NCBI GenBank assembly: GCA_965661685.1
Contig: CBFIET010000056.1
Span: 19,465-83,464 of the forward strand
Source of the DNA: Planctomycetota bacterium
Lineage (GTDB): Bacteria; Planctomycetota; UBA8108; UBA1146
Reading direction: 5' to 3'
DNA length: 64,000 nucleotides
This document shows, piece by piece, positions 31,313 to 54,672 of this stretch. Below the pieces are notes generated by a model that searched no databases, was not told the DNA's origin, and was given only the letters and a program-made list of their open reading frames with translations. The translations under genes and the position numbers were made by a program. Each line of letters begins with the position of its first letter. Positions within the stretch are counted from its first letter, which is position 1.

Positions 31313-31588
31313 ATGTCCGAAAAGCCGTCGATATTGCTGTACAGTGCCACCTGGTGCCCCGATTGCACCCGGGCGATTCGATTTCTCGAGGAGCACTCCG
31401 TCCACTTCCAGAAGGTCGATATCTCCGAGGATCCGCAGGCCGCTCAACTTCTCGAGGAGAAGACGGGCAAGCGTGGGATACCGTTCCTGGTGGCGGGGGA
31501 TCAGTGGGTTCGAGCGTACACCCCAGGTGGGGGCCCCTTCCCCGCCGATGAAATTCTAGAAGCGGTTCGCTCCTACCAGGAGGACTGA
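31313..31588 (+). CDS. Glutaredoxin/NrdH-like redoxin
   Basis: YSATWCPDC active site, RGIPFL cis-Pro motif; AGGAGG SD. Confidence 0.9.
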   Translation: MSEKPSILLYSATWCPDCTRAIRFLEEHSVHFQKVDISEDPQAAQLLEEKTGKRGIPFLVAGDQWVRAYTPGGGPFPADEILEAVRSYQED

Positions 31589-31592
31589 GCCG

Positions 31593-34466
31593 ATGAGGAG
31601 CCCGTCGATGCACAGGATGTTCGCCCTCTTCTCGCTGATTCTGTTGCTCAGCGCGTTTCCGTTCGTGACCGGCACCTCGACGGTGTTCAGTCAGGATCCC
31701 TTCGATTTTGATGCGATCGGCTTCGATGATGATGCTCCCGTTACTTTTTCCGCCGAGGAGGTGAAGGGAGCAACCGCAGGTTCCGATGTGGTGGTCAAAC
31801 TGGTCGCCACCATCGAACGTGGGTGGCACATCTTCTCCTTCGACAGCGATCCGGAACTGGGGATTCCCACATCGGTGGTGCTGGTCGGTGCCGGAGATCT
31901 CCAGGCTCTCGAGCCGATTCGCGAGCCGAAACCTCACGAGCGTGAGGATCCTCTCGTCGGTGGTTCCATCCTGGAACATGTCGGTCGTGCCCAGTTCGAG
32001 ATTCCACTCAAGGTTCCTGCCGATGCGAAAGAGGGGCCGAGGAAGATCCTCATCGACATCACTTACCAGGCGTGTGATGCCAAGCAGTGTCTTGCGCCCA
32101 CCGTCGCCACGGTGGAAACCACCGTCACCGTCGGAGCGATGGTAGAGGAGCCACAACAACCGGCGGTGAAGACGCTGGTGGTCAGTACCACTGCAGAAGG
32201 TTCACCGGTGAAGTGGACGGCAACCGGAGTGTCGGAGATCGAAGCGGGGCAGACTGTCGAGGTAGAGATCGTGGCTGCCATAGAACGTGGCTGGCACATC
32301 TACGGTGTCGATCTCGATCCGCAGGTGTCGGGGGATCCCACCACCTTCTCGATTCCGCAGGACCACCCCTTCACCATCGGCAAGGTGGTGGAGGTGACCC
32401 CCGCCAGACCGAGGAACGACCCTGTCGCCGGGGGCCTGATCGTCGAACACATTCGCAAGGCGGTTTTCCGCCTGCCCGTGACGATTCCGGCGACGATCCC
32501 CGAAGGGATCGAGCGACTGCCGGTGACGGTGGCGTACAACGTGTGTGATGCGCAGATCTGTCTTCCTCCCGAACGGGTGACGCTGGAGATTCCACTGCTA
32601 CAGGAATCGCTGACCGATTCAACTCCCACGGCGCACCAGGGAGCGGTCGAGGTCTCGCTGATGCAGGAGGTGGATGATGGAGATCTCCGCATCGAGGCGG
32701 GATTCACCGCCCTCAAGGTGCGGGCAGGGGATCCGATCGGCTTCTCGCTACAGGGATCGGTGCAGGAGGGGAAGAGAATCCCCGCCATCCGCAACGACAC
32801 CCGCGGTGCCGCCGAGCAGGCGGGACTGCTCGGAATCATCGTGCTCTCCTTCGGTGGCGCACTGGTGGCACTGCTGACCCCCTGTGTCTATCCGATGATC
32901 CCCATCACCGTCAGTGTCTTCACCAAGCAGGCCCACGAGAGCCGTTCGAGGGTGCTGTGGCTGGCGGGATTGTTTGGCGGAGGGATCGTCGCATCGTTCA
33001 CGGCACTGGGCTTCCTCCTGTCCGCCTTGCTGGGGGAAGAGGGGGCCAACTTCATGGCCACCAACGGATACGTGAACCTGGCCATCGGTCTCCTCTTCGT
33101 CATCTTCGGATTCAGTCTCTTCGGCTACTACGACATCCAGTTGCCGGCGTGGCTGCGCAACCGGGTCGGTGGTGGCGGAGGTGGTGGAGCCGCCAGCGTG
33201 CTGGTGATGGGACTCGTCTTCAGCGTTACCACCTTCACCTGTGTCGGCCCCATCGTCGCCTTCCTGCTGGCACTGGCAGCGGGGGAGGGCCCCGGCTTTG
33301 CTGCGGTGGGAATGCTCGCATTCAGTACCACCCTGGCGATTCCGTTCGTGATGCTGGCTCTCTTCCCCAAGGCGTTGACCGGTTTACCACGATCCGGTGG
33401 CTGGCTGTCGACGGTGAAGGTGATCCTCGGATTCATCGAACTGCTGGCGGCCTGGAAGTTCTTCAGTGCGGTGGCCACCTACTGGAAGTTCGGAGAAGTG
33501 GTCAACCGCGAGGTGATCATGGCGATCTGGGGTCTGACGCTGGTCGCACTGGCACTGAACCTCGTCGGGAAATTACGATTCCCGCACGATTCCCCGGTCA
33601 CGTCGATCTCCTTCGGCCGTGGATTTCTGCTGGCACTGACGGTGACCAGCGCATTCAGTTGCTTCTATGCCACCACCGGCTGGCGTCTCAACGAGAACCT
33701 GGAGGCGCAGCTGCTGGTCCCGAGTGTCCATGCAAAACAACACCTTCCGTGGACGATTCTGGATCGGGATCATCCCCTCGACTTCCGCGAGCAACTGACC
33801 TTGCTGAAGGAAAAATCGCAGGAGGGGAGCAGTACCCCGAGACCGATCTTTCTCAACTTCACCGGCCACACCTGACAGAACTGCAGGCTGATGGAAAATG
33901 GAATTTTCCTGGAGCCGGAAGTCGAGCAGTTGCTCGGCCAGTTCGAACTACTCGAGATTTACAGTGACGATGCCACCAGTGAGGTGGAGGAGAAGTACCG
34001 TGCTCATCAGATCGAGTACTCCGGCTATTACGCAAACCCCACCTACATCGTGCTGGACAGTGCTGACCATCTGGAAGTGGCGAGAGGATCGTTCACCAAC
34101 AGTTCCACCGAGTTCGCCGACTTCCTGAAGGAGGGACTCCTCGATCGTCCCGCCTTCGAGAGTCGTATCCAGCTCGATGGGCTCACCTTCGAGGAAGAGG
34201 GTCATGAGGTGGAGGTGCTGTCCCGGATCAAACCGTGGTCCTTCGCTGGACAGGTCGATAGTCGCTACCGCGACGAGGAGGTGAAGGAACTCGCCTCTAC
34301 CTTCGAGGCCTCTACCACGTTCCGCGTCGGTGACGAACTGGAGGCGGGGGATTACTTCATCCGTCTCCGTTTCGTCGGTGGACTGTACCGGGGAGACGAG
34401 CGGATTCGCACCTTCTCCCTCCCCCTCAAGTTGAAGCTGCAGGTCGAGGCACCACCGAAGATCTGA
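31593..34466 (+). CDS. dsbD: DsbD-like thiol:disulfide interchange protein, candidate selenoprotein (U761 from TGA 33873-33875)
   Basis: Signal peptide; two N-terminal Ig-like domains (YQACDAKQC, YNVCDAQIC); TM domain LTPCVYPMIP/FTCVGP; Trx domain FLNFTGHT-TGA-QNC-RLMEN continuing in frame to TGA 34466; hairpin follows the TGA. Confidence 0.88.
33886..33916 (+). promoter_or_regulatory. Putative bacterial SECIS element of the dsbD-like gene
   Basis: GGCU-gau-GGAAAAU[GGA]AUUUUCC-ugg-AGCC; apical loop starts with G, 24 nt after the UGA. Confidence 0.7.
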
Positions 34467-34621: not shown

Positions 34622-35212
34622 GTGCAGATGCGAGAGATGGAGATCGATGGAGAGGGTTGCCGGGGGAGCGAGCGACAACCACGAAACAGAAGATGGCCCT
34701 GGCAACGGATGACGATGGTGCTGCTCCTGGGAGGGGCATTACTGATCAGTGTCACGATGCGGGAGATGTTGCACGGCCAGGCGGGCGGCGGCGGGGTCCC
34801 GGCGGACCTCGGTTGCGAAGCGGAATGTCCCGGGGTCGGAACCGATGTGAGGGGGATGCGACAGACCCTCTCTCCGGTGTCGAACTCCTGTGAAGGAACG
34901 GCGCTGCAACTGCTGCTCGACCAGCTTGATATCGAGGTGGATCTGCCAGCGGATTCATGTCCCGCCTGGGTTGTCATCGAGCCGGAGCGACGGCTCCCGA
35001 CACAGATCGATGGTTGCTGTCTGATCTCCCGCGAGGACCTTCCGGTGTTTCAGCAGAAGATGCGGTGTCGCTGCACCCGTCGCTTCCTCGTCTGCTGGGA
35101 TCAGGATTGCCTCCCCGATGGAGAAGCGGTGCAGTTGACGTCGCTGGCCAGCTGGGTCGCATCCCCCTGTGCCGGTGGTCAGGGCATCCTTCCCTGCAAC
35201 CGGGGGAGGTAA
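34622..35212 (+). CDS. Cys-rich secreted or membrane-anchored hypothetical protein
   Basis: Hydrophobic segment VLLLGGALLISV, then 12 Cys; stop lies 1 nt before the next ATG; start uncertain. Confidence 0.55.
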   Translation: MQMREMEIDGEGCRGSERQPRNRRWPWQRMTMVLLLGGALLISVTMREMLHGQAGGGGVPADLGCEAECPGVGTDVRGMRQTLSPVSNSCEGTALQLLLDQLDIEVDLPADSCPAWVVIEPERRLPTQIDGCCLISREDLPVFQQKMRCRCTRRFLVCWDQDCLPDGEAVQLTSLASWVASPCAGGQGILPCNRGR

Positions 35213-35213
35213 C

Positions 35214-36638
35214 ATGACGATGGAAAAGCTACATCCTGAGAGGGTGTCGTGGCGCACCAGCGGGCGGTGGAGGTGGCTGCTGCCGCTGTTCCTGGTGGCG
35301 ACACTGCTGAGTGGGCTGATACTGAGTGGGCTGATGCTGAGTGGGGTGCTGCTGAATCGATGGTCACCTCCCCCGGAAAGGCTCACTGCGGGGGATTCGA
35401 TCACCGCTGATCGCGGCGAAGAGGAGATCGATCAACCATCGACAGTGAGGCCGATGGCCTCAGCGCTGCTCTTCCCTCCCGATCGGTCTCCGGTGGTGGC
35501 GCCGACTGCATCCGGCGACGGGGAAGCGGTGGGCGAACCGTGGCGACCGCCCCTCGATGCTCTGGTGGCGGCGGGCTACAGCGGGCACGATCCCTCGGCG
35601 GCCATCATCGATCTGCTCACGGCGCAGCCGGGGATGGGAGATCTTCTTCTGACACTGCTCCTCGAATCGACAGCGGATCAGGATGAGCTGGATGCACTCA
35701 CCGTGGCTCTGGCCAGTGCATTGAATCCGCGATTGTCGGGGGGTGTCGCCTCCGACACCGACGTGCTGTTGCCTGCACAGCTGCAATCGCTGTGGGTCGA
35801 TCGAGATGGCACCATGATGCTGATGGCGGAGTTGTACATCCTCGGGGAGGAGCGTGCCCGTTACTTTCCCCGGTTGCTGGCGGGAGAAGGGATTCTCACG
35901 CCGTGGCACGCCATCGACCTGGCCGCATTGATGGAGCCGGGCTATTTTCGCGAGGCACTGGTCCCCGATCAAAGGCAGCGTTGGTTGCAACTACTGCAAC
36001 TGTGCCTCGATGAGACCAGTGCCGAGGCGGTGGCGGTGGCAGCGGCCTGGACCGACTCTCAGCTCCCTCCCCTGAGGGAACTCGCATTGCAGACAACGGT
36101 CGCCTCCATGGCAGATCGGCCACGGATGGCGTGGGATCGAATCGGGCAAGCTCCCCAGCAGCATCGGATGGCGATGGTGGAATCGGTGTGGCAGCACATC
36201 GACTCGCAACGGTTCGTCGAGTGGCTCGATCTTTCAGCGGATCTGATGCTGGCGCAGGAGTACAGGGGAACTGCACTGCTCGGTGGATTCTCCCGGGTTC
36301 CTCAGCTCGATCTGGAGGATCTGGTTTACTCCCGGGGAGATGAAGGGGATTCGGAGGAGTTTCGAAATCTCGTCATCGAGGCCAGTCAGGGTGCGCTCGG
36401 TGTCGGCGACACCTTTCCTCAGCGGTGGAGAGGGGCCCTGGAATGGATCGCAGTTTCCGACCCGGCCCGGTCGGTCCGGGGACACGCCCTGCGAGTCTGT
36501 GCCCTCAGCTGGCCGGTACACGATCGGGTGCAGTTTGAAAATCTGATCCAGCGCAGTGATGTTGATCTTCGTAGTGCACAAATCGCAGCTTCGATACTCG
36601 ATGCCCGGGGATCGACAGGTTGGAGTCGCGGTGATTGA
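35214..36638 (+). CDS. Membrane-anchored helical hypothetical protein
   Basis: GGGAGG SD, ATG 35214, N-terminal TM, long open frame. Confidence 0.6.
   Translation: MTMEKLHPERVSWRTSGRWRWLLPLFLVATLLSGLILSGLMLSGVLLNRWSPPPERLTAGDSITADRGEEEIDQPSTVRPMASALLFPPDRSPVVAPTASGDGEAVGEPWRPPLDALVAAGYSGHDPSAAIIDLLTAQPGMGDLLLTLLLESTADQDELDALTVALASALNPRLSGGVASDTDVLLPAQLQSLWVDRDGTMMLMAELYILGEERARYFPRLLAGEGILTPWHAIDLAALMEPGYFREALVPDQRQRWLQLLQLCLDETSAEAVAVAAAWTDSQLPPLRELALQTTVASMADRPRMAWDRIGQAPQQHRMAMVESVWQHIDSQRFVEWLDLSADLMLAQEYRGTALLGGFSRVPQLDLEDLVYSRGDEGDSEEFRNLVIEASQGALGVGDTFPQRWRGALEWIAVSDPARSVRGHALRVCALSWPVHDRVQFENLIQRSDVDLRSAQIAASILDARGSTGWSRGD
35307..35351 (+). repeat. In-frame 15-bp tandem repeat x3 lengthening a TM segment (LSGLI LSGLM LSGVL)
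   Basis: CTGAGTGGGCTGATA CTGAGTGGGCTGATG CTGAGTGGGGTGCTG. Confidence 0.8.
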
Positions 36639-36688
36639 GAGCAGGACGAATCAAGACCCGATCTCTCGCTGGAGATGGCGATCACCTG

Positions 36689-38395
36689 TCATTCGCTCTC
36701 GCGCGGCCTCTTGGTCACATTCACGTAGTAGAGGTCGGTCGCCACCGCGAAGCGTTCCTGACCCAGCTCGGTCGCCAATGTTTGCCACTCGGTGGTGGGG
36801 GAGAGCTGCTGCCAGCTCGCTTTCTCTCCCGCCAGGAGCTGCCCATCCAAACCGGGGCCGACCAGGATCGGCATGGCGAAACCGGGTACGTCCGTTTTCC
36901 AGCGGTAGGAAACGCTGTTCTTGGCGTCATCGAAAACCAGCTCGAGAAGCGGTAGATTCGCGTGGCGCAGGTACTGATCGAACACCGGTTGGAGGTCCAT
37001 CCCGAATCGTTTGTTGAAGAGCTTCAGGATGTCGTCGGTCTCGATGCTCTGGTACTTGAAGGTATCGTAGACCTCGCGCACCAGCGCCCACCACTTGTCA
37101 TCGTCTCTCAAAACGTTGCGCAGGGTGTGTAGAAACAACGCACCCTTGAAGTACTGATCCCCAGGAGGTTCTCGATGCGTCCCCTTTTGCGTGATGATCG
37201 GTCGCCGATTGGCAACCTTTCCCTGATAACCGTTGATGTACTTCAGGGCGTCTGAGTATCCGAACAGTTTCTCGACGTACATGCATTCGAGGTAGGTGGT
37301 CCATCCCTCGTGAATCCACATGTCGCACACATCGGCAGCGGTAACCGCGTTGCCGAACCACTCATGGCCGCTCTCGTGGATGATGATGAAGTCGAACTTC
37401 ATGCTCACGCCAACGCCGGTCCAGTCGTTGCCGAGGTAGCCGTTGGTGAATCGGTTGCCGTAGGTCACGGCGGATTGGTGCTCCATCCCCGAATAGGGGA
37501 CCTGTATCAGCTTGTAGCCATCCTTGATGAAGGGGTACTCGCCGAAGTAGTGCAGGAACGCCTCCATCATCGGCTTTGCCTGGGCGAATTGCTTCTTGGC
37601 CTTCTCGAGGTCTTCCGGCAAGGCGTAGTAGTCGAGGGTCAACTCACCGAGTTGATCAGAAAAGTGCTCGTAGGCCGCAATGTTGATGGAAACGTTGTAG
37701 GAGTTGATCGGATAATGGACTCGCCACTTCCAGCGTGTGAACCCGTCTCCCAGATCTTCCTTACCGATGAACCGACCATTGGAAACATCGGTCAACCCGT
37801 TGGGGACTGCCACGCTGATGTCCATACTCTCGACCTCGTCGCGCCACTGGTCCTTACAGGGCCACCAGTAACTCGATCCTGGTCCTTCGCACGCCGTGTA
37901 AATCCACGGGCGACCGGCCGGATCCTCATCGAAACTGATACCGCCGAAGCGACTACTGCTCTTCGGAGCACCCGAGTAGTGGAAGTCGATGCTGTAGTTT
38001 TCTCCCGCTTTGAACCCTTCGGGGTTGTCGACGAATACCGCATTGAACTCGCGCTCGAAGGGAAGTTCCCTGGAACCGAGCACGATCTTGTCGACGGCGA
38101 GCTCGCTGTTCAGGTCGAGCTGGATACGATCGTCGTCGGACAGCATCCGAAAACCGATGGTCACCTTGCCACCAATCGTCTTGCTCTCCGGTGACACGCG
38201 GATGTCGAGGTGGTAATAGGTGAGATCGTTGTTGGCGCGATAGCGCCCGTACTCACCACGCAACTGTCGCTTACGCAATTGCGCTTCCGATTCCGGATCC
38301 TGGACCCCGGACAATGGCTCCGATCCAGGGCTGGCAGCGACCCCCATTCCTGGAGATGTACAGAGCAGCATCAGTGCAAGTAGGATCGTGTTCAT
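36689..38395 (-). CDS. M1 family zinc aminopeptidase, secreted
   Basis: Signal peptide; YSGMEHQ exopeptidase motif; HESGHEW and WIHEG (HExxH-x18-E); YFKGA. Confidence 0.93.
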   Translation of the reverse strand: MNTILLALMLLCTSPGMGVAASPGSEPLSGVQDPESEAQLRKRQLRGEYGRYRANNDLTYYHLDIRVSPESKTIGGKVTIGFRMLSDDDRIQLDLNSELAVDKIVLGSRELPFEREFNAVFVDNPEGFKAGENYSIDFHYSGAPKSSSRFGGISFDEDPAGRPWIYTACEGPGSSYWWPCKDQWRDEVESMDISVAVPNGLTDVSNGRFIGKEDLGDGFTRWKWRVHYPINSYNVSINIAAYEHFSDQLGELTLDYYALPEDLEKAKKQFAQAKPMMEAFLHYFGEYPFIKDGYKLIQVPYSGMEHQSAVTYGNRFTNGYLGNDWTGVGVSMKFDFIIIHESGHEWFGNAVTAADVCDMWIHEGWTTYLECMYVEKLFGYSDALKYINGYQGKVANRRPIITQKGTHREPPGDQYFKGALFLHTLRNVLRDDDKWWALVREVYDTFKYQSIETDDILKLFNKRFGMDLQPVFDQYLRHANLPLLELVFDDAKNSVSYRWKTDVPGFAMPILVGPGLDGQLLAGEKASWQQLSPTTEWQTLATELGQERFAVATDLYYVNVTKRPRESE

Positions 38396-38417: not shown

Positions 38418-38744
38418 TCATTTTAGTCGAAGTCCGCAGTCGCTGCAGGTCTCCGATTCACCCGCGATGGTTCCGCAGGCGGGACAGGCATCTTCGGCGG
38501 CGTTGTCGTCCGATGCGTCTGCCGTCGATTCCCACTCCCGTGCCGCCTTCTCCTGCAATAAGGCCATTGCCGCCGGTGCTTCTTCCTTCGCGACCGCGAG
38601 GATCAACTTGGTTCCTCAGCCACCCGGTACCGGTGTGACCCGGGGAGAGACCCCGGTAGATTCCAGCAATCGGGCAGCTTCCCGGATGCCGTCGAGAGGT
38701 CCCTGGAGGAGGTCGACCCAGTCATCGTCATGATCTTCGTTCAT
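38418..38744 (-). CDS. 108-aa candidate selenoprotein (U43 from TGA 38618-38616) with C-terminal zinc ribbon
   Basis: ATG overlaps the nfo stop (TGATG); MNEDHDDDWVDLLQGPLDGIREAARLLESTGVSPRVTPVPGG-TGA-GTKLILAVAKEE..CPACGTIAGESETCSDCGLRLK; hairpin follows the TGA. Confidence 0.75.
38584..38602 (-). promoter_or_regulatory. Putative bacterial SECIS element of the small UGA-containing gene
   Basis: mRNA UCCU-CGC[GGUC]GCG-a-AGGA; starts 13 nt after the UGA, apical loop at 20 nt; GGUC core as in the E. coli fdhF SECIS loop. Confidence 0.65.
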
Positions 38745-39661
38745 CAGGAAAGTACCTTCTTCTTGCCCAGTTTGCGCAGCAAGGCGAGGTTCTTGCTGTC
38801 CATGTCATCTTCCTTGGCGGTTTCCAGCATCTTGGGGATGCCACCGAAGCGATCGTCGTTGATCAGCAATTCGAAGCCCTTTTTGCCGATCAGGCCATCT
38901 CCGATGTGCATGTGTCGATCGAGGTGACTGCCGAGATCTCCCTTGCTGTCATTGAGATGCAGTGCGAAGACTCTTGCTGCGCCGATGGTCTTGTCGAGTT
39001 GCTTCATCGTCTGCTGGTATCCCTCGGCATCTCGAAGTTCGTACCCGGCGGCAAACATGTGACAGCTATCGAGGCAGGTTCCGGTTCGATCGGGATCATC
39101 GATGGCAGCCAGAAGGTCACGGAGTTCCTCGAAGGATCGACCCATCGTCGTTCCACCACCGGCGGTGTTCTCGAGGAGCACTCGCGTCGTGACCTGTGGG
39201 ACCCTGCGGAAGCACTCCTGCATTCCAGCAGCGATTCGTTCGATGGCGGCGTCGACTCCGCTTCCCACATGAGCCCCTGGATGCATCACCAGGTAGTCGA
39301 GACCGAGCATCTCGGCGCGCTGCAGTTCATCGGTGAAAGCATCGATGGACTTTTGAAACAGTTCTTCCTTGGGAGATGCGAGATTGATCAGGTAGGAATC
39401 GTGGCTGGTGACCGGATGAGATCCCCACTCCGCCACCGCTTCACGAAAGCGAACAGCTTCCTTCTCCTCGATCGGTCTCTGGATCCAGCGGCTGGCATTC
39501 TTGGTGAAGATTTGCAGCGAGCGTAGCTTCAACTGCATCGCTTCCGCCACCGCCTTCCAGCTGCCGCCGGAGACGGACAGGTGGCTACCCAGGCACAGGC
39601 GATCGGCATCGTCTTCGAAGGTCTTGCGTACAGTTCGCTTTCCCGGTGCAGCGGGACTCAT
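38744..39661 (-). CDS. nfo: Endonuclease IV (AP endonuclease)
   Basis: LGSHLSVSG, QIFTKN, HDSYLINL, MHPGAH, LLENTAG, CLDSCHMFAAG, HLNDSK, DRHMHIGDG, LETAK. Confidence 0.96.
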   Translation of the reverse strand: MSPAAPGKRTVRKTFEDDADRLCLGSHLSVSGGSWKAVAEAMQLKLRSLQIFTKNASRWIQRPIEEKEAVRFREAVAEWGSHPVTSHDSYLINLASPKEELFQKSIDAFTDELQRAEMLGLDYLVMHPGAHVGSGVDAAIERIAAGMQECFRRVPQVTTRVLLENTAGGGTTMGRSFEELRDLLAAIDDPDRTGTCLDSCHMFAAGYELRDAEGYQQTMKQLDKTIGAARVFALHLNDSKGDLGSHLDRHMHIGDGLIGKKGFELLINDDRFGGIPKMLETAKEDDMDSKNLALLRKLGKKKVLS

Positions 39662-39678
39662 CGTGCTCCTCGTTTCCT

Positions 39679-40344
39679 TCAGTCAGCGATCAATTGATCG
39701 AGCTGGTCGACCCACAGGTCAGGTTCCGGTGGAGATGCCGTGCCGTAGCCACCGCGTCGCCCGATGGTGCGAACTCCCGCAGCGATTCCGGTCGAAAAAT
39801 CGACGGCAGAATCTCCCACCATGACAGCATCCCGTGGGGCACATCGTAATCGTTCGAGGATTCCGAGCAATCCGCTCGGATCCGGTTTTGGTATCCCGAC
39901 GTCCTCGGGTGAGACCACCTCTGCCCAGGGACCGTGTAGATCGAGGCGAGGACGCAGCGTTGCGGTGACGCGGCGAGGCTTGTTGGTGAGGATCGCTACC
40001 GGTGTCTGACGATTCCGTAGATGGTCGAGGAGTTCTATCGATCCCGGCAGCCAGCGGATATCCCTGGAGGAATCCTCTGCGATCTGACAGTAGATCGCCA
40101 TGAACTGCTGGTACTGATGCTCGACACTCTCTCCATCCTCGAGGATGTCGGAGAGGATTCTCTGGCACAGTACCCTGGCACCATCTCCCACCGCAGCCCG
40201 CACCGTATCCGTGGAATGTAGCGTGGCGGATCGAGATTCCCGTAGCCGATTGACCGCCTCTGCGATGTCGCCGATGGAGTCAATCAGCGTTCCATCGAGA
40301 TCAAAAACGATGCAGCCGCTCGGGAGGGGGAGTGGATTGTTCAT
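39679..40344 (-). CDS. HAD-superfamily phosphatase (phosphoglycolate phosphatase-like)
   Basis: FDLDGTLIDS, LTNKP, KPDP, MVGDS; ATG 40344 overlaps the upstream stop. Confidence 0.9.
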   Translation of the reverse strand: MNNPLPLPSGCIVFDLDGTLIDSIGDIAEAVNRLRESRSATLHSTDTVRAAVGDGARVLCQRILSDILEDGESVEHQYQQFMAIYCQIAEDSSRDIRWLPGSIELLDHLRNRQTPVAILTNKPRRVTATLRPRLDLHGPWAEVVSPEDVGIPKPDPSGLLGILERLRCAPRDAVMVGDSAVDFSTGIAAGVRTIGRRGGYGTASPPEPDLWVDQLDQLIAD

Positions 40345-42347
40345 ACTGCGGTAGGTGATTGCCCCGAGGGTCGTGTGTACGAATCCTTGTCGAAGTAACG
40401 GTGAAGAAGAGAGATGACGATGATGACCGTCTCCAGCGCATAGAAGATGTAAAGGATGCTCTGAATGCCATCGGTGAAGCCATAACTGTGCAGCCCGACG
40501 CCGAGGAGATTTACACCCCACCAGGAAAAGGCCACGATGATGGCATTGATGAGGACCAGGATGTGGAGACCCTGCTCGCGGATGAACCCACTCATGCGGG
40601 CGTGAAGGATCACCAGTTCTGCGAGACAGATCATCAGGGCGCCATTCTCCTTTGGATCCCATCCCCAGAATCTGCCCCAGGAGTAGTTGGCCCAGATCCC
40701 TCCCAGGATGGTGCCGACGATGCTGAAGAAGAGCCCGAAGCAGATGGTTCCGTAGACCATGCGAGTGATGCTCCGATAGAAATCACCATCGCCTTTGCGG
40801 AATCCGGTCAACTTCCCCAGCAGCCACACGTGCGAGATGGCCGCAGCCAGCAAACCTGCGGAGTATCCAAGGGTTACCGAGGTGACGTGGGTGGAGAGCC
40901 AGAAGTTTGTGTCGAGTACCGCGACCAGGCTCGGCATGGTGTCTCCCGCGGTGACCGCCTCCTTCATCTCGTACTTGATGGAAAGGAAACAGCCGATCGA
41001 TCCGAGCACCGTGGCCATCGTCAGGGCGATCTGGCGTCGATCGAAACGCTCGATGAAGAGCGCTGTCAGGACACAGCAGGCGGTGATGAAGAGGATCGTC
41101 TCGTAAAGGGTCGTGACCGGGGGACGTCCCTGGATGACACAGCGAATCGTCACTCCGACCACCAACAGGATCAGTCCCAGCAGGCTGAAGGTCCAGCTTC
41201 CCCGGCTGGAGAGAGGTGAATCGGGTTTCATCCAGCCGAGACAACTGATCACGAAGGCGAGCATGAAGCAGATCAGTGCCTTGAAGAAGAAGTCCCACCG
41301 ATAAAAGGTGGTTTCCAGTGAGACGTACTCTCCCTGGCCATGGTTGGTTGCCAGTGCCATCAACATCGATTGAACCTGGATCGCCTTTTCCTTGAAAGCA
41401 GGTCGATCGTCACGTAGTGCGACCATCTCTTCGATAGCCTGCAGAGCTTCCGACTGACGTGGCTGGGCATTCATCGTCAGGGCAGATTCGAGAATCCCAT
41501 CGGTGCGGCTCCAGATGGGGGGAGGCGCATCCTTTCCCGTCTGGACCTGCTCGGGAGCGAACCATGCGATTCCCCTGCGAGCGATCTGCAACTGGACCAC
41601 CAGTTGGGAGCGAAGGTCATCGAGAATGGCGATCACCTCGGTCTGACGCTCTTCTGGTAACTCCCGTAACTTCTCTGGATCGGTCAGGTTGGCGAGACGA
41701 TCGACTCCGGCGATCAACGGTGAGAATCCTGGTCGGGGTTCGACCCCGAACACCTCCTGAAACTCGGGTGCCGTGAACAGTGGAAGCTGATTTCGGGCAG
41801 AATCGAACCCGTACAGCAACTCCTCCAGACTGCCGAGATTCTGTGCGAGTTGCACCGTCTGTCTTTCGACGACACTCCAGGTCTTTGAATCCTTGCTGTT
41901 CTGGATACGACTGGCACTGCTGAAGATCTCATCGAGAACCGGGGCCAGCTGATCGTAACTCCAGCGAGAACTTCTCTTTCGCCCCGAGACATCGAGCCCG
42001 ACCGAGGTGAGAACTTCTGCGTTGGAAACCAGAATGCACGGGTAGGTACGGGCAATTTCGGGGTACAGCAAGAAATCGAGGGCCCAGGCGGTTGGCCCCA
42101 GCTTGTCTCCGGCGATGGTCACCGAACGCTTGCCGTTGATCTTCAGCATGGTGAAGCCGGCGAAGGTGCCGAACGGCTTCACTCGACCCCCGTGTTGAAG
42201 GGGCCAGCGAGCGATGCAGTCGAGCGTTTCTGTATCCCAGGAGGCTCGACTCCTGGCAGTGTTTTCTTCGACTGCCGCGTCTTGACCCTCCACCGCAGCA
42301 GGGATGACCAGAAGCAGCATGGCGAGAAGAGAAACAAGACACCTCAT
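40341..42347 (-). CDS. ccsA: System II cytochrome c synthase, CcsA/ResC family, with large periplasmic N-terminal domain
   Basis: STHVTSVTLGY, GGIWANYSWGRFWGWDPKEN (WWD domain), LHAR, GVGLHSYG. Confidence 0.92.
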   Translation of the reverse strand: MRCLVSLLAMLLLVIPAAVEGQDAAVEENTARSRASWDTETLDCIARWPLQHGGRVKPFGTFAGFTMLKINGKRSVTIAGDKLGPTAWALDFLLYPEIARTYPCILVSNAEVLTSVGLDVSGRKRSSRWSYDQLAPVLDEIFSSASRIQNSKDSKTWSVVERQTVQLAQNLGSLEELLYGFDSARNQLPLFTAPEFQEVFGVEPRPGFSPLIAGVDRLANLTDPEKLRELPEERQTEVIAILDDLRSQLVVQLQIARRGIAWFAPEQVQTGKDAPPPIWSRTDGILESALTMNAQPRQSEALQAIEEMVALRDDRPAFKEKAIQVQSMLMALATNHGQGEYVSLETTFYRWDFFFKALICFMLAFVISCLGWMKPDSPLSSRGSWTFSLLGLILLVVGVTIRCVIQGRPPVTTLYETILFITACCVLTALFIERFDRRQIALTMATVLGSIGCFLSIKYEMKEAVTAGDTMPSLVAVLDTNFWLSTHVTSVTLGYSAGLLAAAISHVWLLGKLTGFRKGDGDFYRSITRMVYGTICFGLFFSIVGTILGGIWANYSWGRFWGWDPKENGALMICLAELVILHARMSGFIREQGLHILVLINAIIVAFSWWGVNLLGVGLHSYGFTDGIQSILYIFYALETVIIVISLLHRYFDKDSYTRPSGQSPTAV

Positions 42348-43549
42348 CGTGCACTCTCCTTCACTTTGCTCGTTTGCTTCTTGCTGTAGGCGAGAAACTT
42401 CTGGATGAATGTGATGGCCATACCGACAGCGATGACGATGCATGAATAGAGTGGCCACTGGTCTGATGGATTGCGAACCACCGAGAAGACACTGAACAGT
42501 TCATCCTCCGGGGCGGCATTGGATGGTCCCCAGCTAGACTGGAACAGGATGAGCCCCTGATCTCGTAACGGATCGTTCATCTCGATGCGGATCTTGCGCT
42601 GGTCCCCATCCTTGACCTGGGTCACATCGCTGCGGAATTCCTTCGCCATGGCGATTCCCGGGTGATCGACCTTTTCGAAGTTGTCGAGGCGGATCGAGTA
42701 GGGCATCGAGTAGCGAACTTTCCTCAGTGCTACGGCATAGATCTCGTCGTCGAGGGAGAAGGTCCACGGGAATTTCTCCCCACCCCAGAGAAGTGCAGTT
42801 TTCTTGAGTCCAGCATCGTTGGAGACCTCCACCACCATGCCGGGGAGGTTCTGCTCATTTTCAGGATTGAGTTGCGATTCGAGCAGGGCCCACCCATCCA
42901 CCTCTTCCGAGGAAGGAGTCCATCGAGGTCCGACAGGCTGGGGGGAGCAGTTGATCAGGGGCGTTCTCACCTGCAACTGGAAAGGGGTCTCGGTGGTGGA
43001 ATCGATGGTCAGTGGAGCACCATTCAACCAGCGAGATTGGTGAACACGATGCTCGTGGATCTCGGCCTGATCGGGATTGGTCTTGAAGACGGCCAGTTCC
43101 CAGTGGTGGTGACTGATATATTCCGCCGCCTGCTGAGTTTCCCACAACCTGAGGTAACCCTCATCGGAAGCCTTCAACTTCACAAGGCCCGCCAGCATCA
43201 TGATGGCGATTCCAACATGGATGATGAAGATGCCGATGGTTCTACGGTTGACCCTCAGCCGCAAGACACCGCCGACCAGCAGGTTGATGGTGAAGCAGAC
43301 CATGCACAGAAGACCCCCGGGGAGTGGGACCGGAATCTGCAGTGAGAAGACGTTGAAGGTGTGGATCAATCCCCACGATTCGAAGTATGTTTTCTGGACC
43401 TTGTAGAGGCCGTGTTGCGCCTGCTCAAGTGTTCCGAGAAAGGTCAGCAGGAGCAGCAAGGCCATCAGCACCGCTGCCACCTTCTGGCTTCCCAGAAACT
43501 TCAGGAATCTATCGATCAATCGGGTGAGATCGTCTCTGTCCTTGCTCAC
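42344..43549 (-). CDS. ResB/CcsB-like cytochrome c biogenesis protein
   Basis: FLGTLEQ, three TM with conserved His (IIHVGI), PYSIRLDNF, MNDPLRDQG; coupled to ccsA. Confidence 0.85.
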   Translation of the reverse strand: MSKDRDDLTRLIDRFLKFLGSQKVAAVLMALLLLLTFLGTLEQAQHGLYKVQKTYFESWGLIHTFNVFSLQIPVPLPGGLLCMVCFTINLLVGGVLRLRVNRRTIGIFIIHVGIAIMMLAGLVKLKASDEGYLRLWETQQAAEYISHHHWELAVFKTNPDQAEIHEHRVHQSRWLNGAPLTIDSTTETPFQLQVRTPLINCSPQPVGPRWTPSSEEVDGWALLESQLNPENEQNLPGMVVEVSNDAGLKKTALLWGGEKFPWTFSLDDEIYAVALRKVRYSMPYSIRLDNFEKVDHPGIAMAKEFRSDVTQVKDGDQRKIRIEMNDPLRDQGLILFQSSWGPSNAAPEDELFSVFSVVRNPSDQWPLYSCIVIAVGMAITFIQKFLAYSKKQTSKVKESAR

Positions 43550-44703
43550 CGGACCACCTCCAGCGAAGTGGCCAGTTGCATCATCAACGGTCGTGCGGTT
43601 TCCATCTCATCGATGGGGCCGACCATCTTCACGAAGACTGCGCGGTCGGGAAGGATCCGGATGAGACCTATCATCTTCCAGTTCTCCTTCGGTGTACTCC
43701 CCATGCTGGAGTAGGGACCGACCCCTTCGATCACCAGGGCGTCGTCACCCAGCATCGGTTCGGTGGCGAGTTGTGCGAGTTGCTCCTCTTCGAGGGGGTC
43801 TAGGCTCAACTCCTTTCGCCAGCGGTTGGCGTTGGCCAGTGCCCCGCCTCCATCTCCGCCCAGCACCGTGATCCAGCAACGGGTTTCCTCGCCGGCGACA
43901 AAGGTCACTTCGCGCATCGGCTTCGGAGGGTCGATGGTCCAGCCCTCGGGTACCTGCCAGGAGAGGGACGAGGATGGCGTTGGAGATTGCTCTGGTGCCG
44001 CCGCTTTTCTTTCGAGCCGGATGGAGGAGGTGAAGTTGGAGAGCGCATCGCTCTGCTCCGTTAGTAGCGATCGGGGACCGATCGCTTTCAGGAACAGGGT
44101 GCTCTCTCCAATAGGCAGAAGATGAACTACCATGCGCGCATCTTCGACTCTCCTGCCAGTGAAGGAATCGGTGTAGGTGCCGTCGACCTGGAAGAGAGAG
44201 GAGAGTGCCCCCAGAAGTGGAACCTTGGGAAGGGCGGTCAACTCTTCATCGGTCGGTGGAGTCGCTTCCATCTGCTTGCACCAACGATCGATGTTGTCCC
44301 GTAGCGAACCTCCCCCGGGAATCACGGTGAGATAGCACTCCGCAGAGCGATCGCCAGCGATCAGCAGATTGATGTGGCGCATCGAGGTGGGTGCGACTTC
44401 AACCCAGCCTTCGGGCAGTTGATATTCCAGGGTCGGGGGAGCTTGAGCGGTATCCTGAGACGGTGGCTGTTCACGACCGAATCTGCGGGCGTCGGTGGCT
44501 CCTGGAAGAATCGGATGGACAACCTCGGGAATGATCCGGACGTCGTCATAACTTCCGTCTGATTTTCTGGTTCCATCACAGGAGCAGAGACAGAGGCAAC
44601 TGGTGATGAGCAAGAAGAGGCTGGCGAAGAAATTCTTCGAGCAGTCGATGGAATCACCACCGACTGCCGAGAATCTCCGTGTACTGCGTAGTCCGCAATT
44701 CAT
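43546..44703 (-). CDS. Lipoprotein with duplicated domain, upstream of resB-ccsA
   Basis: Lipobox-like CLCSC; two repeats of P.GW..MR..C.(L/I)T..GG...N..RW; start 44703 or 44763. Confidence 0.7.
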   Translation of the reverse strand: MNCGLRSTRRFSAVGGDSIDCSKNFFASLFLLITSCLCLCSCDGTRKSDGSYDDVRIIPEVVHPILPGATDARRFGREQPPSQDTAQAPPTLEYQLPEGWVEVAPTSMRHINLLIAGDRSAECYLTVIPGGGSLRDNIDRWCKQMEATPPTDEELTALPKVPLLGALSSLFQVDGTYTDSFTGRRVEDARMVVHLLPIGESTLFLKAIGPRSLLTEQSDALSNFTSSIRLERKAAAPEQSPTPSSSLSWQVPEGWTIDPPKPMREVTFVAGEETRCWITVLGGDGGGALANANRWRKELSLDPLEEEQLAQLATEPMLGDDALVIEGVGPYSSMGSTPKENWKMIGLIRILPDRAVFVKMVGPIDEMETARPLMMQLATSLEVVR

Positions 44704-44710: not shown

Positions 44711-45037
44711 TCATCCCTCGAGAGAAGTGAGTTTTTCCTCGATGGATGGCTTGGGGTGGGCACCCGATAACTTGTCTACTACTTCGCCATCTTTGAAGAA
44801 GAGCAGCGTGGGTACTCCCTGGATGCCGAATTTCACCGCCAGACCCTGCGCCTGATCGATGTCGACCTTGCCAACCTTGATCCCTTTTTCGGCGAATTCG
44901 TCTGCCAGTTGCTCCACGACAGGTGCGATCGTCTTGCAGGGTCCACACCAGGTGGCGTAGAAATCGAGCATTGCGGCTCCCTTGCTGATCTCCGAGTCGA
45001 AGTTGCTGTCATCGATGGTCAATAAGTTCCCGGTCAT
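44711..45037 (-). CDS. trxA: Thioredoxin
   Basis: DFYATWCGPC, GIQGVPTL; AAGGAG SD. Confidence 0.97.
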   Translation of the reverse strand: MTGNLLTIDDSNFDSEISKGAAMLDFYATWCGPCKTIAPVVEQLADEFAEKGIKVGKVDIDQAQGLAVKFGIQGVPTLLFFKDGEVVDKLSGAHPKPSIEEKLTSLEG

Positions 45038-45096: not shown

Positions 45097-45564
45097 TCAA
45101 TCGATCTCTTCAGTGAACTCTCGGTCTCGATTCCCGCCATCGGAGGAGGGAAGGGTGTGACCGGGCAGAGCGAGACGTTCGCTCTTGTCGCCGTGTAATG
45201 GTCTCCAGGCACGGATGATCTGGTCTCCAGGTCGCCACGAGAGCCATGCCATGCAATCGTTGACTTCACAGAGAAACTCGATGGTTGCGGTAGATAGATC
45301 CCTGAAATGGCCACCCACCTCGAGAATCTCCACCTGCAGCGAGTCTAACTCCTCCTTGAGTTTCCGGAAGCCCTCTCGCAGCGTCAACTGACTGGCGATC
45401 TCTCCACTGGAGTCATCGCGCCGAGTTCCCTGCATCTGAATCAGGTCCTGCTTGCGATCATTGAGTCGCACCAGATCCGCGCCGATCTTCTCGAGAAGTG
45501 GAATCCGGTCGTTGACCTCTTGTACGGTGAAGATTGGCGAAGCGTTCGTGGTTGATTCTGGCAT
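45097..45564 (-). CDS. DUF2203-like protein
   Basis: FTVQEVNDRIPLL..coiled coil..RDL..IEF..LSWRPGD..W pattern recalled for this family. Confidence 0.6.
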   Translation of the reverse strand: MPESTTNASPIFTVQEVNDRIPLLEKIGADLVRLNDRKQDLIQMQGTRRDDSSGEIASQLTLREGFRKLKEELDSLQVEILEVGGHFRDLSTATIEFLCEVNDCMAWLSWRPGDQIIRAWRPLHGDKSERLALPGHTLPSSDGGNRDREFTEEID

Positions 45565-46712: not shown

Positions 46713-47534
46713 TCAGAGGCCGAGGCGGGATCCTCCGCTGTAGCAGTTGAGCCCACTGCTTCCGGCAAATCCGCACAGAATCATGCCGGTGGCGCGCGCG
46801 GTCTCGATGGCCAGTGAAGAGGGTGCGCCCACCGCGACGAGGGCACTGAAGCCGGCGACCGCTGCCTTCTGTACCAGTTCGAAACTGGCGCGTCCGCTCA
46901 CGGCACAGACCAGTTCGCTGGCGGGAAGAAGAGTGCGACTGGACAGCCCTCCGATCAACTTGTCGAGGGCGTTGTGGCGTCCCACATCTTCTCGAACCAG
47001 TAACGGCTCTCCATCCAGTTGCCAGGCTCCAGCGGCGTGGACACCACCGGTACTTTCGAAGAGACCCTGGGAGGCGCGGAGTTGATCGGGGAGGGAACTG
47101 AGCCAGTCGGGATCGATCTGCTGCTCACCGCGGGTTTCGGGAATCTTCCCCACCACATCCTGGATGCGGGTCCGTCCGCAGATTCCACAGGCACTGGTGC
47201 CGGCACTACTCCTGGAGTAGGCATCGATGTCGACGACGGCACCTTCCTTGAGGATCACCGTCACGACATTCAGGGGTTCCTCTGCACTTCCATCGGTGCA
47301 ATGAGTGACACCTGCCGGGGACTCGTCAGAAGCGAGGATTCCCTCCGCCACCAGGAATCCGATGGCGAGGTCGAAATCGTTGCCTGGGGTTCTCATGGTG
47401 CTGGTGATCTGTTCGTCGCGACTGGCTCCACCTTCAGTCCAGCGTACCCTCACCTCCAGCGGTTCTTCCACGGCGATCTCGTCGAGACCTCGAGGGGGAC
47501 GACCGGGACGGGTTCGACGTACCGGTAGCCTCAT
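46713..47534 (-). CDS. fdhD: Formate dehydrogenase accessory sulfurtransferase FdhD
   Basis: EEPLEV, MRTPGNDFDLAIGFL, SACGICG, TGGVHAA, EDVGRHNALDK, SGRASFELVQK; start 47534 or 47582. Confidence 0.93.
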   Translation of the reverse strand: MRLPVRRTRPGRPPRGLDEIAVEEPLEVRVRWTEGGASRDEQITSTMRTPGNDFDLAIGFLVAEGILASDESPAGVTHCTDGSAEEPLNVVTVILKEGAVVDIDAYSRSSAGTSACGICGRTRIQDVVGKIPETRGEQQIDPDWLSSLPDQLRASQGLFESTGGVHAAGAWQLDGEPLLVREDVGRHNALDKLIGGLSSRTLLPASELVCAVSGRASFELVQKAAVAGFSALVAVGAPSSLAIETARATGMILCGFAGSSGLNCYSGGSRLGL

Positions 47535-47652
47535 CGATGGCCGACCAGGCGGCGAAGAGGAAGGTGGTTGTGCGTCAGTCATTCCGGTTCCATCCCGTCG
47601 GAGTCGCCAAGCTGACGACTTCCGGCAGGATAACGGTCAGGAGGGCACTCTC

Positions 47653-50201: not shown

Positions 50202-50203
50202 TC

Positions 50204-50686
50204 CTAGCGGGTTCTGACGACCCAGAATTGATGTTCGGAGACATCACCTTCGCGGCTTTGCCAGGTGACGGTCACGAGAATTTCCAGCGGGTCCGCCTCC
50301 ATGTCGGAGACGGCGACATCGAGGGTCGGGATCGTCAGGTCATTGAGTTCTTCGAAGGTCGGGGATTCTTCGAAGACCTGGCGCCCCTTCTTGGGCCAGT
50401 TGGAAGGGAGGAGATATCCATCCTGATCGTTGGTCAGGTCTTCCAGTGTTCTCGAGTACATCTCTTCCAGAACTGCCCTGGTATGGCCGGTGGCCCGGGT
50501 CACCTCGCGGGTGTAGTTCTGTTCGTCGAGAACGGGGAGCAGTACCAGTGCGGCACTGAGACTCACCAACAATAGCAGGGCGATGGCGATCATCACTTCC
50601 AGCAGGGTCAAGCCCGCCTGCGAGGATCTCGTACCGGTTCCCGAAGACATCTCAGTTCCTATTCCTGGGCGCCGATCCGTATTCAT
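50204..50686 (-). CDS. PilV-like prepilin
   Basis: QAG/LTLLEVMIAIALL with Glu at +5. Confidence 0.8.
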   Translation of the reverse strand: MNTDRRPGIGTEMSSGTGTRSSQAGLTLLEVMIAIALLLLVSLSAALVLLPVLDEQNYTREVTRATGHTRAVLEEMYSRTLEDLTNDQDGYLLPSNWPKKGRQVFEESPTFEELNDLTIPTLDVAVSDMEADPLEILVTVTWQSREGDVSEHQFWVVRTR

Positions 50687-52302: not shown

Positions 52303-52334
52303 CCAGAACTGACGCTATTGGACAAGGAGAATCC

Positions 52335-53447: not shown

Positions 53448-53748
53448 TTACTGGAAACATTTTATGTCATTGTCGCGAGGCTGCAACCGGGTACTCTCGC
53501 CTCGACGACGCCTCTCCCGGGTGATTGCAACCGATCGAGGAAACAGGTTCTTCAAGGAAAACCCCGCTACCCCTCGATGGGATCACTCCATCCTCAAAAT
53601 TAGATGATTGAAATTGTCCTGGGATGCCAGGAATTACAGCGGGATTCAGGTGATAATCCGCAACTTCGTGGCTCTTTCAAGGGGGCCTGAATCGGTTTTG
53701 CTGCCCGTCATGTCCGGGCAACTCCATGTCGCGGAATGAGGTGACTCG

Positions 53749-54672
53749 ATGGCTCGTGATGTTGTGATCATCGGATCTGGACCTGCTGGATACACGTCGG
53801 CGATCTACACCGGTAGGGCACAGTTGAATCCGCTCGTCTTTGCAGGCTCTCTCAGTGGTGGTCAGTTGATGCTCACCACCGATGTTGAAAATTACCCGGG
53901 GTTTCCTGAAGGCGTGATGGGGCCAGACCTCATGGAGAACTTCAGGAAGCAGGCGGAGCGATTCGGTGCCGAGGTGGTCTATGAAGACGTGATCGAGGTC
54001 GACTTCTCCAGTCACCCCTTCAAGATCAAGAGTACCGCCCAGGAGATCGAGGCGAAAACCGTCATCATCTCCACCGGAGCCAGTGCCAAGATGCTAGGAC
54101 TTGAATCAGAAAGTCGCTTGATGGGGCATGGGGTCAGCACCTGTGCCACCTGTGACGGGTTCTTCTTCAGGGATCAGGAGATCGCCATCGTCGGTGGCGG
54201 GGATTCCGCCATGGAGGAGGCCACATTCCTCACCAGGTTTGCAAGTAAGGTGACGGTGATTCACCGCCGAGATTCCCTGCGAGCTTCCAAGATCATGCAG
54301 CAGAAGGCGATGGACAATCCCAAGATCGAGTTCATGTTCGACTCTGCAGTCACGGAAGTCCTCGACAGCGATGACAAGGTGAGTGGTGTCGTCGTCGAGA
54401 ATTTGAAGTCGGGCGAGAAGAGTACTGTGGACCTCAGTGGCCTGTTTGTTGCCATCGGGCACACCCCCAACACGCAACTGTTCGAGGGAAAGGTAGACCT
54501 TCATGACAACGGATACATCCGCTGTCAGGAGGGGGCCAAGACCAGCGTAGAGGGTGTTTTTGCCTGTGGGGACGTGCAGGATTTCACCTATCGTCAGGCG
54601 ATCACTGCGGCGGGGAGCGGGTGCATGGCGGCGATCGATGCAGAGCGCTGGCTGGAGCATCACCTCTCCTGA
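53749..54672 (+). CDS. trxB: Thioredoxin reductase
   Basis: IIGSGPAG, GGQLMLTTDVENYPG, CATCDG, VGGGDSA, RQAITAAG. Confidence 0.98.
   Translation: MARDVVIIGSGPAGYTSAIYTGRAQLNPLVFAGSLSGGQLMLTTDVENYPGFPEGVMGPDLMENFRKQAERFGAEVVYEDVIEVDFSSHPFKIKSTAQEIEAKTVIISTGASAKMLGLESESRLMGHGVSTCATCDGFFFRDQEIAIVGGGDSAMEEATFLTRFASKVTVIHRRDSLRASKIMQQKAMDNPKIEFMFDSAVTEVLDSDDKVSGVVVENLKSGEKSTVDLSGLFVAIGHTPNTQLFEGKVDLHDNGYIRCQEGAKTSVEGVFACGDVQDFTYRQAITAAGSGCMAAIDAERWLEHHLS

Follow-up and report, generated by a model that had tools for sequence, protein, structure and literature searches.

Does this planctomycete make its cytochromes c with a dedicated, selenium-dependent redox system? The question is raised by a stretch of 64,000 nucleotides (64 kb; hereafter the window) of contig CBFIET010000056.1, from the Planctomycetota assembly GCA_965661685.1. 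In it, a gene for the membrane electron transporter DsbD with an in-frame TGA codon lies close to a set of cytochrome c synthesis (ccs) genes and to a small gene that is also interrupted by TGA. An earlier reading of the DNA, made from the letters alone (the sequence-only reading), proposed that these genes, together with a glutaredoxin gene, fdhD and trxB, may form one trans-envelope reduction and cytochrome c maturation system, and allowed that the clustering could be incidental. We conclude that both TGA codons very likely encode selenocysteine (Sec). For the region as a whole, the explanation we favour, and consider rather likely, is that three units (the grx-dsbD pair, the ccs module and the gene of a DG-like selenoprotein) are adjacent by descent and do not constitute one dedicated system. 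The Sec-containing DsbD (Sec-DsbD) is most likely a general selenium-dependent conduit for periplasmic reductant; cytochrome c maturation is probably one of its clients and would hence be selenium-dependent here.

Selenocysteine in the gamma domain of DsbD

The transporter gene and the redoxin gene that precedes it by 4 nucleotides (nt) are laid out as follows.

31313..31588, + strand: glutaredoxin/NrdH-like redoxin (grx) with a WCPDC motif (Pfam Glutaredoxin E=3.7e-15; TIGR02196, YruB-family, E=8.5e-16)
31593..34466, + strand: Sec-DsbD, 957 residues on readthrough of an in-frame TGA at 33873-33875 (Pfam DsbD_TM E=2.7e-23; DsbD_N twice)
33886..33916, + strand: hairpin resembling a Sec insertion sequence (SECIS), GGCU..GGAAAAU-GGA-AUUUUCC..AGCC, beginning 13 nt past the U of UGA

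The protein begins with a signal peptide and two DsbD_N (PF11412) alpha domains, each with a CX4C pair (residues 161/166 and 318/323). The beta domain (DsbD_TM, PF02683) has its redox cysteines at C431 in TPCVYP and C550 in FTCVGP; it is given about eight transmembrane (TM) segments, of which hydropathy yields seven after the signal peptide and the eighth was assigned by eye. The gamma domain is thioredoxin-like (Thioredoxin_7, 26 bits against a cut-off of 27) and carries U761-Q-N-C764, and an additional domain of about 90 residues follows it at the C-terminus. None of the NCBIfam selenoprotein models covers the protein. The best matches are the generic DsbD model PRK00293, which aligns with residues 289-789 at 138.9 bits, under its curated cut-off of 330, and the TsoB model NF045694, which matches the TM domain at 120.6 bits, far under its cut-off of 805. 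Judged from its sequence, the protein is a divergent member of the DsbD family and not of the Escherichia coli type.

The TGA lies in the context FLNFTGHT-U-QNC-RLME and is thus the first position of the gamma-domain CxxC. It is TGA in all 26 readable species-level loci of GTDB, whose C-terminal parts are 37-94% identical and whose labels are almost all those of marine Planctomycetota metagenome-assembled genomes; NFTGH[TV]-U-[QA]NC and the frame downstream of it are conserved. With the C-terminal part of DsbD as query, 5.8 billion proteins yielded 22 homologues of about 190 residues (185-193) that start just past the TGA, and no close relative of full length. An exhaustive HMMER search of 1.84 billion representatives gave the same picture, the top 12 hits being fragments of 122-195 residues, most of which begin at the methionine right after the TGA. 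The first full-length relatives carry cysteine at the TGA site: P0166 (944 residues; FTGDQ-C-TNC-RLME, FTGDQCTNCRLME), P0168 (818 residues; FTGYL-C-TNC) and P0172 (FTGYT-C-TNC). The CxxC of all three aligns with the UxxC of the window, and P0166 and P0168 have the double-alpha, TM and thioredoxin architecture in common.

Hairpins were assessed by folding each sequence separately and comparing it with other windows of the same gene. In every DsbD lineage one starts 13-20 nt past the UGA; its apical loop is small and contains G, and the stem sequences differ between lineages (for example GGAAAAU/AUUUUCC, GAGCAGG/CCUGCUC and GGAGGGUCCC/GGGAUCCUC); the median stability percentile is 0.06. An Rfam scan of the window gave no match. 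Reassignment of TGA as a sense codon was considered and rejected, as TGA also terminates ordinary genes here, and in a sequence this rich in GC a permissive search for additional in-frame TGA codons yielded nothing informative.

All public annotations that we saw split Sec-DsbD into a truncated 'DsbD/CcdA' of about 767 residues and a 190-residue 'hypothetical protein' (for example L001, 7682-9985 and 10001-10573), and the small selenoprotein described below is likewise split, into open reading frames (ORFs) of 41 and 62 residues. This is a systematic mis-annotation across the clade. One ENA entry (P0034, 308 residues) is mostly an aminotransferase whose C-terminal end is the pre-TGA segment of DsbD, ...FLNFTGHT, and is probably a chimeric assembly or gene call. 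Two contigs labelled Bacillota (L090, QNYK01000104.1) and Proteobacteria (L109, JAFMMO010000271.1) have a grx and Sec-DsbD locus of the Planctomycetota type, 74% and 46% identical, respectively, and are probably mis-binned.

A small DG-like selenoprotein

The second interrupted gene lies on the opposite strand.

38418..38744, - strand: small DG-like selenoprotein, 108 residues, in-frame TGA at 38618-38616 (NF049953 E=1.3e-14)
38585..38602, - strand: SECIS-like hairpin UCCUCGC-GGUC-GCGAAGG, 16-33 nt past the U of UGA

The ORF reads MNEDHDDDWVDLLQG...VPGG-U-GTKLILAVAKEE...CPACG...CSDCGLRLK, with VPGG-U-GTK as the Sec motif, so that the Sec is flanked by glycine (GGUGT). Its match to NF049953 ('zinc ribbon-containing (seleno)protein DG') reaches 54.5 bits against a cut-off of 130 and spans model positions 55-171 of 172, leaving some 55 N-terminal positions of the model without a counterpart. 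On this score the protein is a distant relative of DG and not a member by the NCBI criterion. The predicted zinc ribbon, CPACG...CSDCG, is C-terminal (Zn_ribbon_3 E=1.5e-4, below the Pfam cut-off). In the AlphaFold2 (AF2) model, whose mean confidence (pLDDT) is 70, a beta-alpha-beta-beta-alpha domain holds the Sec in the beta2-beta3 turn and is joined by a linker to the ribbon. Foldseek returned generic matches to beta-alpha-beta-beta-alpha (ACT/PII-like) domains only, at E>0.04, and none of significance in the PDB.

The TGA is kept in the window and in 14 of 14 distinct related loci, within an invariant VPGG-U-GT[KQ]LILAVA, and a full-length cysteine form (P0001) is near-identical to the Sec orthologue of L098. 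All 15 distinct sequences have the same hairpin core, CGC-GGUC-GCG, and the pairs around it vary in a compensatory manner between sub-clades (CCUCGCG..CGCGAAGG as against UUCUCGCG..CGCGAGAA); the median stability percentile is 0.09. The gene always follows nfo, to which it is probably translationally coupled, and is found with ccs genes only inside the clade of the window. Both Sec candidates put forward in the sequence-only reading are therefore upheld by a TGA and flanking coding sequence that are conserved, by aligned cysteine homologues and, with moderate weight, by a hairpin after the UGA.

The cytochrome c synthase module and its lipoprotein

The small gene is the eighth in a row of nine genes on the minus strand, the other eight being, in the direction of transcription:

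45097..45564, - strand: DUF2203 protein, first gene of the run (Pfam DUF2203 E=3e-13)
44711..45037, - strand: thioredoxin TrxA, WCGPC (TIGR01068, 105 bits against a cut-off of 96.8)
43546..44703, - strand: tandem-repeat lipoprotein (PsbP/Mog1/LpqN fold by AF2 and Foldseek)
42344..43549, - strand: short ResB/CcsB-like protein, 401 residues (Pfam ResB PF05140, 49.2 bits against a cut-off of 24.6)
40341..42347, - strand: long CcsA, 668 residues (Pfam Cytochrom_C_asm PF01578 E=8.6e-22; TIGR03144, 119 bits against a cut-off of 187.6)
39679..40344, - strand: HAD-family phosphatase, phosphoglycolate-phosphatase-like (Pfam HAD_2 E=2e-28; NCBIfam phosphoglycolate phosphatase models match below their cut-offs)
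38744..39661, - strand: endonuclease IV, nfo (TIGR00587, 272 bits; Pfam AP_endonuc_2)
36689..38395, - strand: M1-family aminopeptidase with a signal peptide, last in the run (Pfam Peptidase_M1 E=3e-20, Peptidase_M1_N)

Gene calls, domain matches and junctions bear out the gene content and order that had been described: all of the named genes are in the window, with grx and Sec-DsbD on the plus strand and this tight run on the minus strand. Start and stop codons overlap at four junctions (lipoprotein/resB, GTGA; resB/ccsA, ATGA, where the resB stop overlaps the ccsA start; ccsA/HAD, ATGA; nfo/small protein, TGATG). The remaining gaps within the run are 7-60 nt, with trxA 7 nt upstream of the lipoprotein gene. 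Because the spacing is so tight, the nine genes are probably co-transcribed; promoter and terminator scans of the region gave results at chance level only.

CcsA has a signal or anchor sequence, a periplasmic domain of about 330 residues and a core with the WWD motif WGRFWGWDPKENGAL. The ResB-like protein has four TM segments, one with a histidine in FIIHVG, and no NCBIfam match. Together with the lipoprotein they make up what we consider, as part of the favoured explanation and with the same fair degree of confidence, to be a system II synthase of a widespread three-gene type: tandem PsbP-like lipoprotein, short ResB and long CcsA. For TrxA neither a signal peptide nor a membrane segment is predicted, and it is presumably cytoplasmic. 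The same prediction holds for the grx product, which we place in the cytoplasm, again presumably, because it has no predicted signal peptide.

The lipoprotein itself finds no match in Pfam or NCBIfam. It has 163 homologues; wherever a source names one, the name is 'hypothetical protein', and Pfam finds nothing in 118 of the 120 listed. An alignment of 50 members reveals two repeats, each with one conserved cysteine (C123 is invariant, C276 nearly so) and one copy of the motif GGG..AN.NRWR.QM. In the AF2 model (pLDDT 85) both repeats are matched by Foldseek to PsbP, Mog1, LpqN and DcrB with probability 1.0, E values of 2e-5 to 1e-3 and target-normalised TM-scores of 0.48-0.57. The sequence-only reading had offered this protein as a possible stand-in for ResA/CcsX, the thiol reductase for the apocytochrome. 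We reject that proposal: the lipoprotein has a PsbP/Mog1-like fold with neither a thioredoxin fold nor a CxxC, and is therefore not a ResA/CcsX equivalent in the usual sense.

How general the module is can be seen from 80 CcsA-centred loci (L006-L085) of Planctomycetota, Hydrogenedentota, Verrucomicrobiota, Nitrospirota, Elusimicrobia, Marinimicrobia, Acidobacteria, Myxococcota and others. The lipoprotein gene is directly upstream of ResB in 56 of the 59 loci with enough upstream DNA, in at least eight phyla. In these loci it stands about 1.5 kb ahead of the ResB match. Within 10 kb, genes for a thioredoxin-like protein or DsbD/CcdA occur in only two of the 80, namely L006, from the clade of the window (trxA and DsbD), and L083 (DsbD). 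Across the 64-kb window we found no ResA/TlpA-type protein, no separate CcdA and no periplasmic thioredoxin-like protein, and WCxxC motifs occur in the grx-like protein and TrxA only. The earlier remark that resA/ccsX and ccdA are missing here is thus correct for the window; since the same is normal for this type of module, their absence near ccs is uninformative about the genome.

Linkage in related genomes

Two further genes belong to the conserved layout and are co-directional with dsbD.

34709..35212, + strand: protein with 12 cysteines (12-Cys protein), membrane-anchored or secreted, downstream of dsbD, its Cys pattern invariant in all clade loci
35214..36638, + strand: hyp489, membrane-anchored, about 475 residues, beginning 1 nt past the Cys-rich gene

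Some 15 species-level genomes of one marine Planctomycetota clade share the layout of the window. In this clade (L086-L106, with the C-terminal part of DsbD at least 57% identical) the order is grx-dsbD, the 12-Cys gene, hyp489, sometimes M1, and then DG-nfo-HAD-ccsA-resB-lipoprotein-trxA-DUF2203; M1 is not at this position in L099-L106. The full layout is confined to the clade. DUF2203 and trxA head the ccs run in L006, L100, L101, L103 and L106 and are not beside ccs in other phyla, trxA being found next to ccs only within the clade. Outside it, the ccs trio is never found with the DG-like gene, HAD, nfo or M1. The 12-Cys protein, which has no NCBIfam match, is conserved in all clade loci, and hyp489, which has no Pfam or NCBIfam match, occurs in them at 28-85% identity; both are missing from the distant Sec-DsbD lineages, which keep grx-dsbD only. 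The two proteins may be specific clients or partners of Sec-DsbD.

Among the distant lineages, the grx-dsbD pair is kept in L004/L108 and L005/L110, and at least in L003-L005 the upstream neighbours of dsbD are kept as well (DAHP synthase, GT2 and asparaginase II). Downstream of dsbD, L003 and L005 have different genes (a Rieske oxygenase and a PAS kinase). In the vicinity of dsbD, ccs genes were not detected in any of L003/L107, L004/L108, L005/L110, L111 and L112. In L005/L110, which are the same contig, nfo and HAD adjoin CcmE-CcmF of system I (L005, 17089-20561), and the same pair follows CcsA in the window (38744-42347). From this arrangement it looks as if one cytochrome c maturation system had been swapped for the other at a syntenic locus. 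Sec-DsbD occurs with either maturation system and is therefore not tied to this ccs operon. The Sec genes had been expected to co-occur with ccs in relatives: within the clade they lie near it, in distant Sec-DsbD lineages they do not, and the proposal that they form one system with ccs finds no support other than the synteny within the clade. That the genes stay adjacent looks like synteny inherited by a group of related genomes.

The role of Sec-DsbD

DsbD passes electrons that come from NADPH through TrxB and a cytoplasmic redoxin to the Cys pair of its beta domain, and from there through gamma and alpha to periplasmic clients. In the window, the redoxin feeding it would be TrxA and/or the adjacent Grx/NrdH-like protein. 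Sec761 would replace the attacking cysteine of the gamma CxxC and form a selenenylsulfide with an alpha-domain cysteine, and the two alpha domains would hand electrons on to periplasmic clients, the apocytochrome-reducing branch included. System II depends on DsbD or CcdA to conduct electrons across the membrane, and on CcsX; DsbD is a housekeeping reductase that serves several clients (PMC4222556). The sequence-only reading had suggested that Sec-DsbD may fill the CcdA step. The suggestion is reasonable, and the parts of the protein would suffice for it: DsbD_TM has both cysteines and is accompanied by two alpha domains and a UxxC gamma domain. The ResA/CcsX thiol reductase for the apocytochrome is presumably encoded elsewhere. 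In the clade, the ccs module has trxA and DUF2203 ahead of it and the unrelated housekeeping genes HAD, nfo and M1 behind it, probably in one transcript.

Several points weigh against this account. The service of Sec-DsbD to ccs is something we infer, and the co-transcription of the nine genes is read from their spacing. The co-directional 12-Cys and hyp489 genes hint at another, more specific client of DsbD. In the window itself the stability percentiles are 0.21 for the DsbD hairpin and 0.15 for that of the small gene, only moderately above background. RNAalifold found no consensus structure in an alignment of 18 post-UGA segments, because, we suggest, the register of the hairpin probably shifts between lineages. 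As the hairpin evidence is moderate, it is conservation and the Cys/Sec pairing that carry most of the case for Sec in DsbD. The genes selA, selB and selD and a tRNA-Sec were not found in the window or in the fetched loci (a tRNA scan gave none in the window and no tRNA-Sec in 32 related loci), and for that reason Sec decoding, too, is what we infer.

The alternative that survives best, which we nonetheless hold to be unlikely, is that Sec-DsbD is dedicated to other clients (the 12-Cys protein, hyp489, or periplasmic isomerases, peroxidases or methionine sulfoxide reductases) and that a separate CcdA elsewhere serves the cytochromes. DsbD and CcdA are both present in many bacteria, and grx, dsbD, the 12-Cys gene and hyp489 are conserved together across the clade. 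Genomes of planctomycetes (anammox) hold one or two DsbD or a CcdA (PMC4222556). However, the distant lineages with Sec-DsbD have neither the 12-Cys protein nor hyp489, and a second CcdA or DsbD was not seen within the 64 kb.

It is distinctly less probable that the region is a dedicated, co-evolved selenium-dependent system in which Sec-DsbD takes the place of CcdA, its alpha domains or the lipoprotein that of ResA/CcsX, with the small Sec protein as a functional part. The attraction of this scheme is that some 15 species of the clade have DsbD, trxA, ccs and the DG-like gene within 14 kb, with trxA directly upstream of the ccs module and no ResA-type gene in the window, and that two alpha domains could in principle serve different clients. 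Yet two to three unrelated genes separate Sec-DsbD from ccs, and the two are encoded on different strands. In the distant L107-L112 they are no longer linked, and one of these lineages carries genes of system I; beyond the clade the DG-like gene, HAD, nfo and M1 are not with the ccs trio. The lipoprotein is PsbP-like with no CxxC, and a nearby resA or ccdA is normally missing from this type of ccs locus.

A more radical scheme, on which we would place equally little weight, makes the tandem PsbP-fold lipoprotein an obligatory third subunit of a separate and widespread class of system II synthase. It routes all of the reductive branch in the clade through Sec-DsbD and has the duplicated alpha domains of DsbD reduce the apocytochrome directly, with no ResA/CcsX. 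On this scheme respiration in the clade would depend on selenium.

That the TGA codons are true stops, with dsbD split or decaying, the small gene two short ORFs and no selenoprotein at all, is scarcely credible: Sec machinery was not seen in the window, TGA is also an ordinary stop here (nfo and the small gene itself end in it) and the hairpin energies are unremarkable in the window alone, but one TGA sits exactly on the catalytic cysteine of a CxxC, the codons persist in 26/26 and 14/14 distinct loci over 37-94% protein identity with strong conservation downstream, the post-TGA parts have no signal peptide of their own, and cysteine homologues exist for both proteins.

Other genes of the window

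The sequence-only reading had counted fdhD and trxB as part of the set. Both genes are real, and both lie outside the run, from which they are separated by an MBL-fold gene and by pseudopilin-like and unassigned genes.

45830-46696, divergent: MBL-fold gene, between the run and fdhD
46713..47582, - strand: FdhD sulfurtransferase, outside the run (NF001943, 242 bits)
53749..54672, + strand: thioredoxin reductase TrxB, unlinked, 8 kb off the run (TIGR01292, 408.8 bits against a cut-off of 343)

We reject them as cluster members and regard them as unlinked housekeeping genes. Between them, at 47653-50686 on the minus strand, are three co-directional genes for proteins of 617, 232 and 160 residues. 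The 160-residue protein has a prepilin-type N-terminal methylation motif (PF07963) and the other two have no family match; together the three genes may encode pseudopilins or a system like type II secretion. The rest of the window is housekeeping: riboflavin synthesis, TGT, YajC-SecDF, enolase, PanC, DAHP synthase, a class II ribonucleotide reductase and others.

Comparison with known systems

Sec appears to be obligatory in DsbD across 27 species-level marine genomes, and all periplasmic reducing power delivered through Sec-DsbD would then depend on a trace element. This matters for selenium limitation in the ocean and for the question why thiol-disulfide relays use Sec in place of Cys. The unannotated PsbP-like lipoprotein is a concrete candidate for an accessory factor of cytochrome c biogenesis in many phyla.

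Sec-DsbD resembles the E. coli-type DsbD (DipZ) in its alpha/beta/gamma layout, with eight predicted TM segments and both soluble ends periplasmic; DsbD of that type is able to supply cytochrome c maturation, both in system I and in the system II of Bordetella or anammox bacteria. Sec-DsbD differs in its gamma-domain Sec, in having two alpha domains with CX4C in place of CX5C, in the extra C-terminal domain of about 90 residues and in the Grx/NrdH-like gene within its operon, and it scores 139 against the 330 of PRK00293. Among selenoproteins, the 2026 prokaryotic selenoprotein catalogue lists TsoB (NF045694; Haft & Tolstoy 2025), a rhodanese/DsbD fusion-like protein, as the sole DsbD-related entry, and a gamma-domain Sec-DsbD is not among the entries given there (PMC13188914). 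A full-text literature search for selenoprotein and DsbD returned nothing else relevant. Both TsoB and Sec-DsbD contain a DsbD-type membrane domain, but TsoB has two Sec in UxxxxU, a rhodanese domain and a place in the Tso operon, whereas the protein of the window has a single Sec in the UxxC of gamma and no rhodanese domain. The same catalogue gives thioredoxin-fold oxidoreductases with Sec, namely Trx, Grx, DsbA-like, DsbG-like and TlpA/ResA-like UGC proteins (PMC13188914). Like Sec-DsbD, these carry UxxC as their redox motif within a thioredoxin fold and are marine or metagenomic in distribution; they are soluble or single-anchor proteins, whereas the Sec of the window is in the gamma domain of a polytopic electron transporter. 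Sec-DsbD is a new form both of DsbD and of UxxC selenoproteins.

The small protein has in common with DG (NF049953) a C-terminal zinc ribbon, a Sec beside glycine and the existence of Cys and Sec forms. The DG family was defined by deep-Sep in Desulfosediminicola with a published GUxG motif, whereas the motif here is GGUGT and the host a planctomycete (PMC12013277; the family is also in the 2026 catalogue).

The ccs module is like the system II ResBC/CcsBA of Bacillus subtilis, Bordetella and Helicobacter in having ResB and a CcsA with WWD, overlapping genes and a thioredoxin gene upstream. In contrast to system II with CcdA and ResA, its ResB is short (401 residues), its CcsA is long (668 residues) and below the TIGR03144 cut-off, a third gene, for the tandem PsbP-fold lipoprotein, is constantly present, and the operon holds no ResA/CcsX or CcdA. 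Each repeat of that lipoprotein matches the fold of the periplasmic PsbP, Mog1, LpqN and DcrB proteins; it is set apart from them by its tandem structure, by one invariant cysteine per repeat, by the place of its gene ahead of resB-ccsA, by the motif GGG..AN.NRWR.QM and by a sequence that is assigned to no family.

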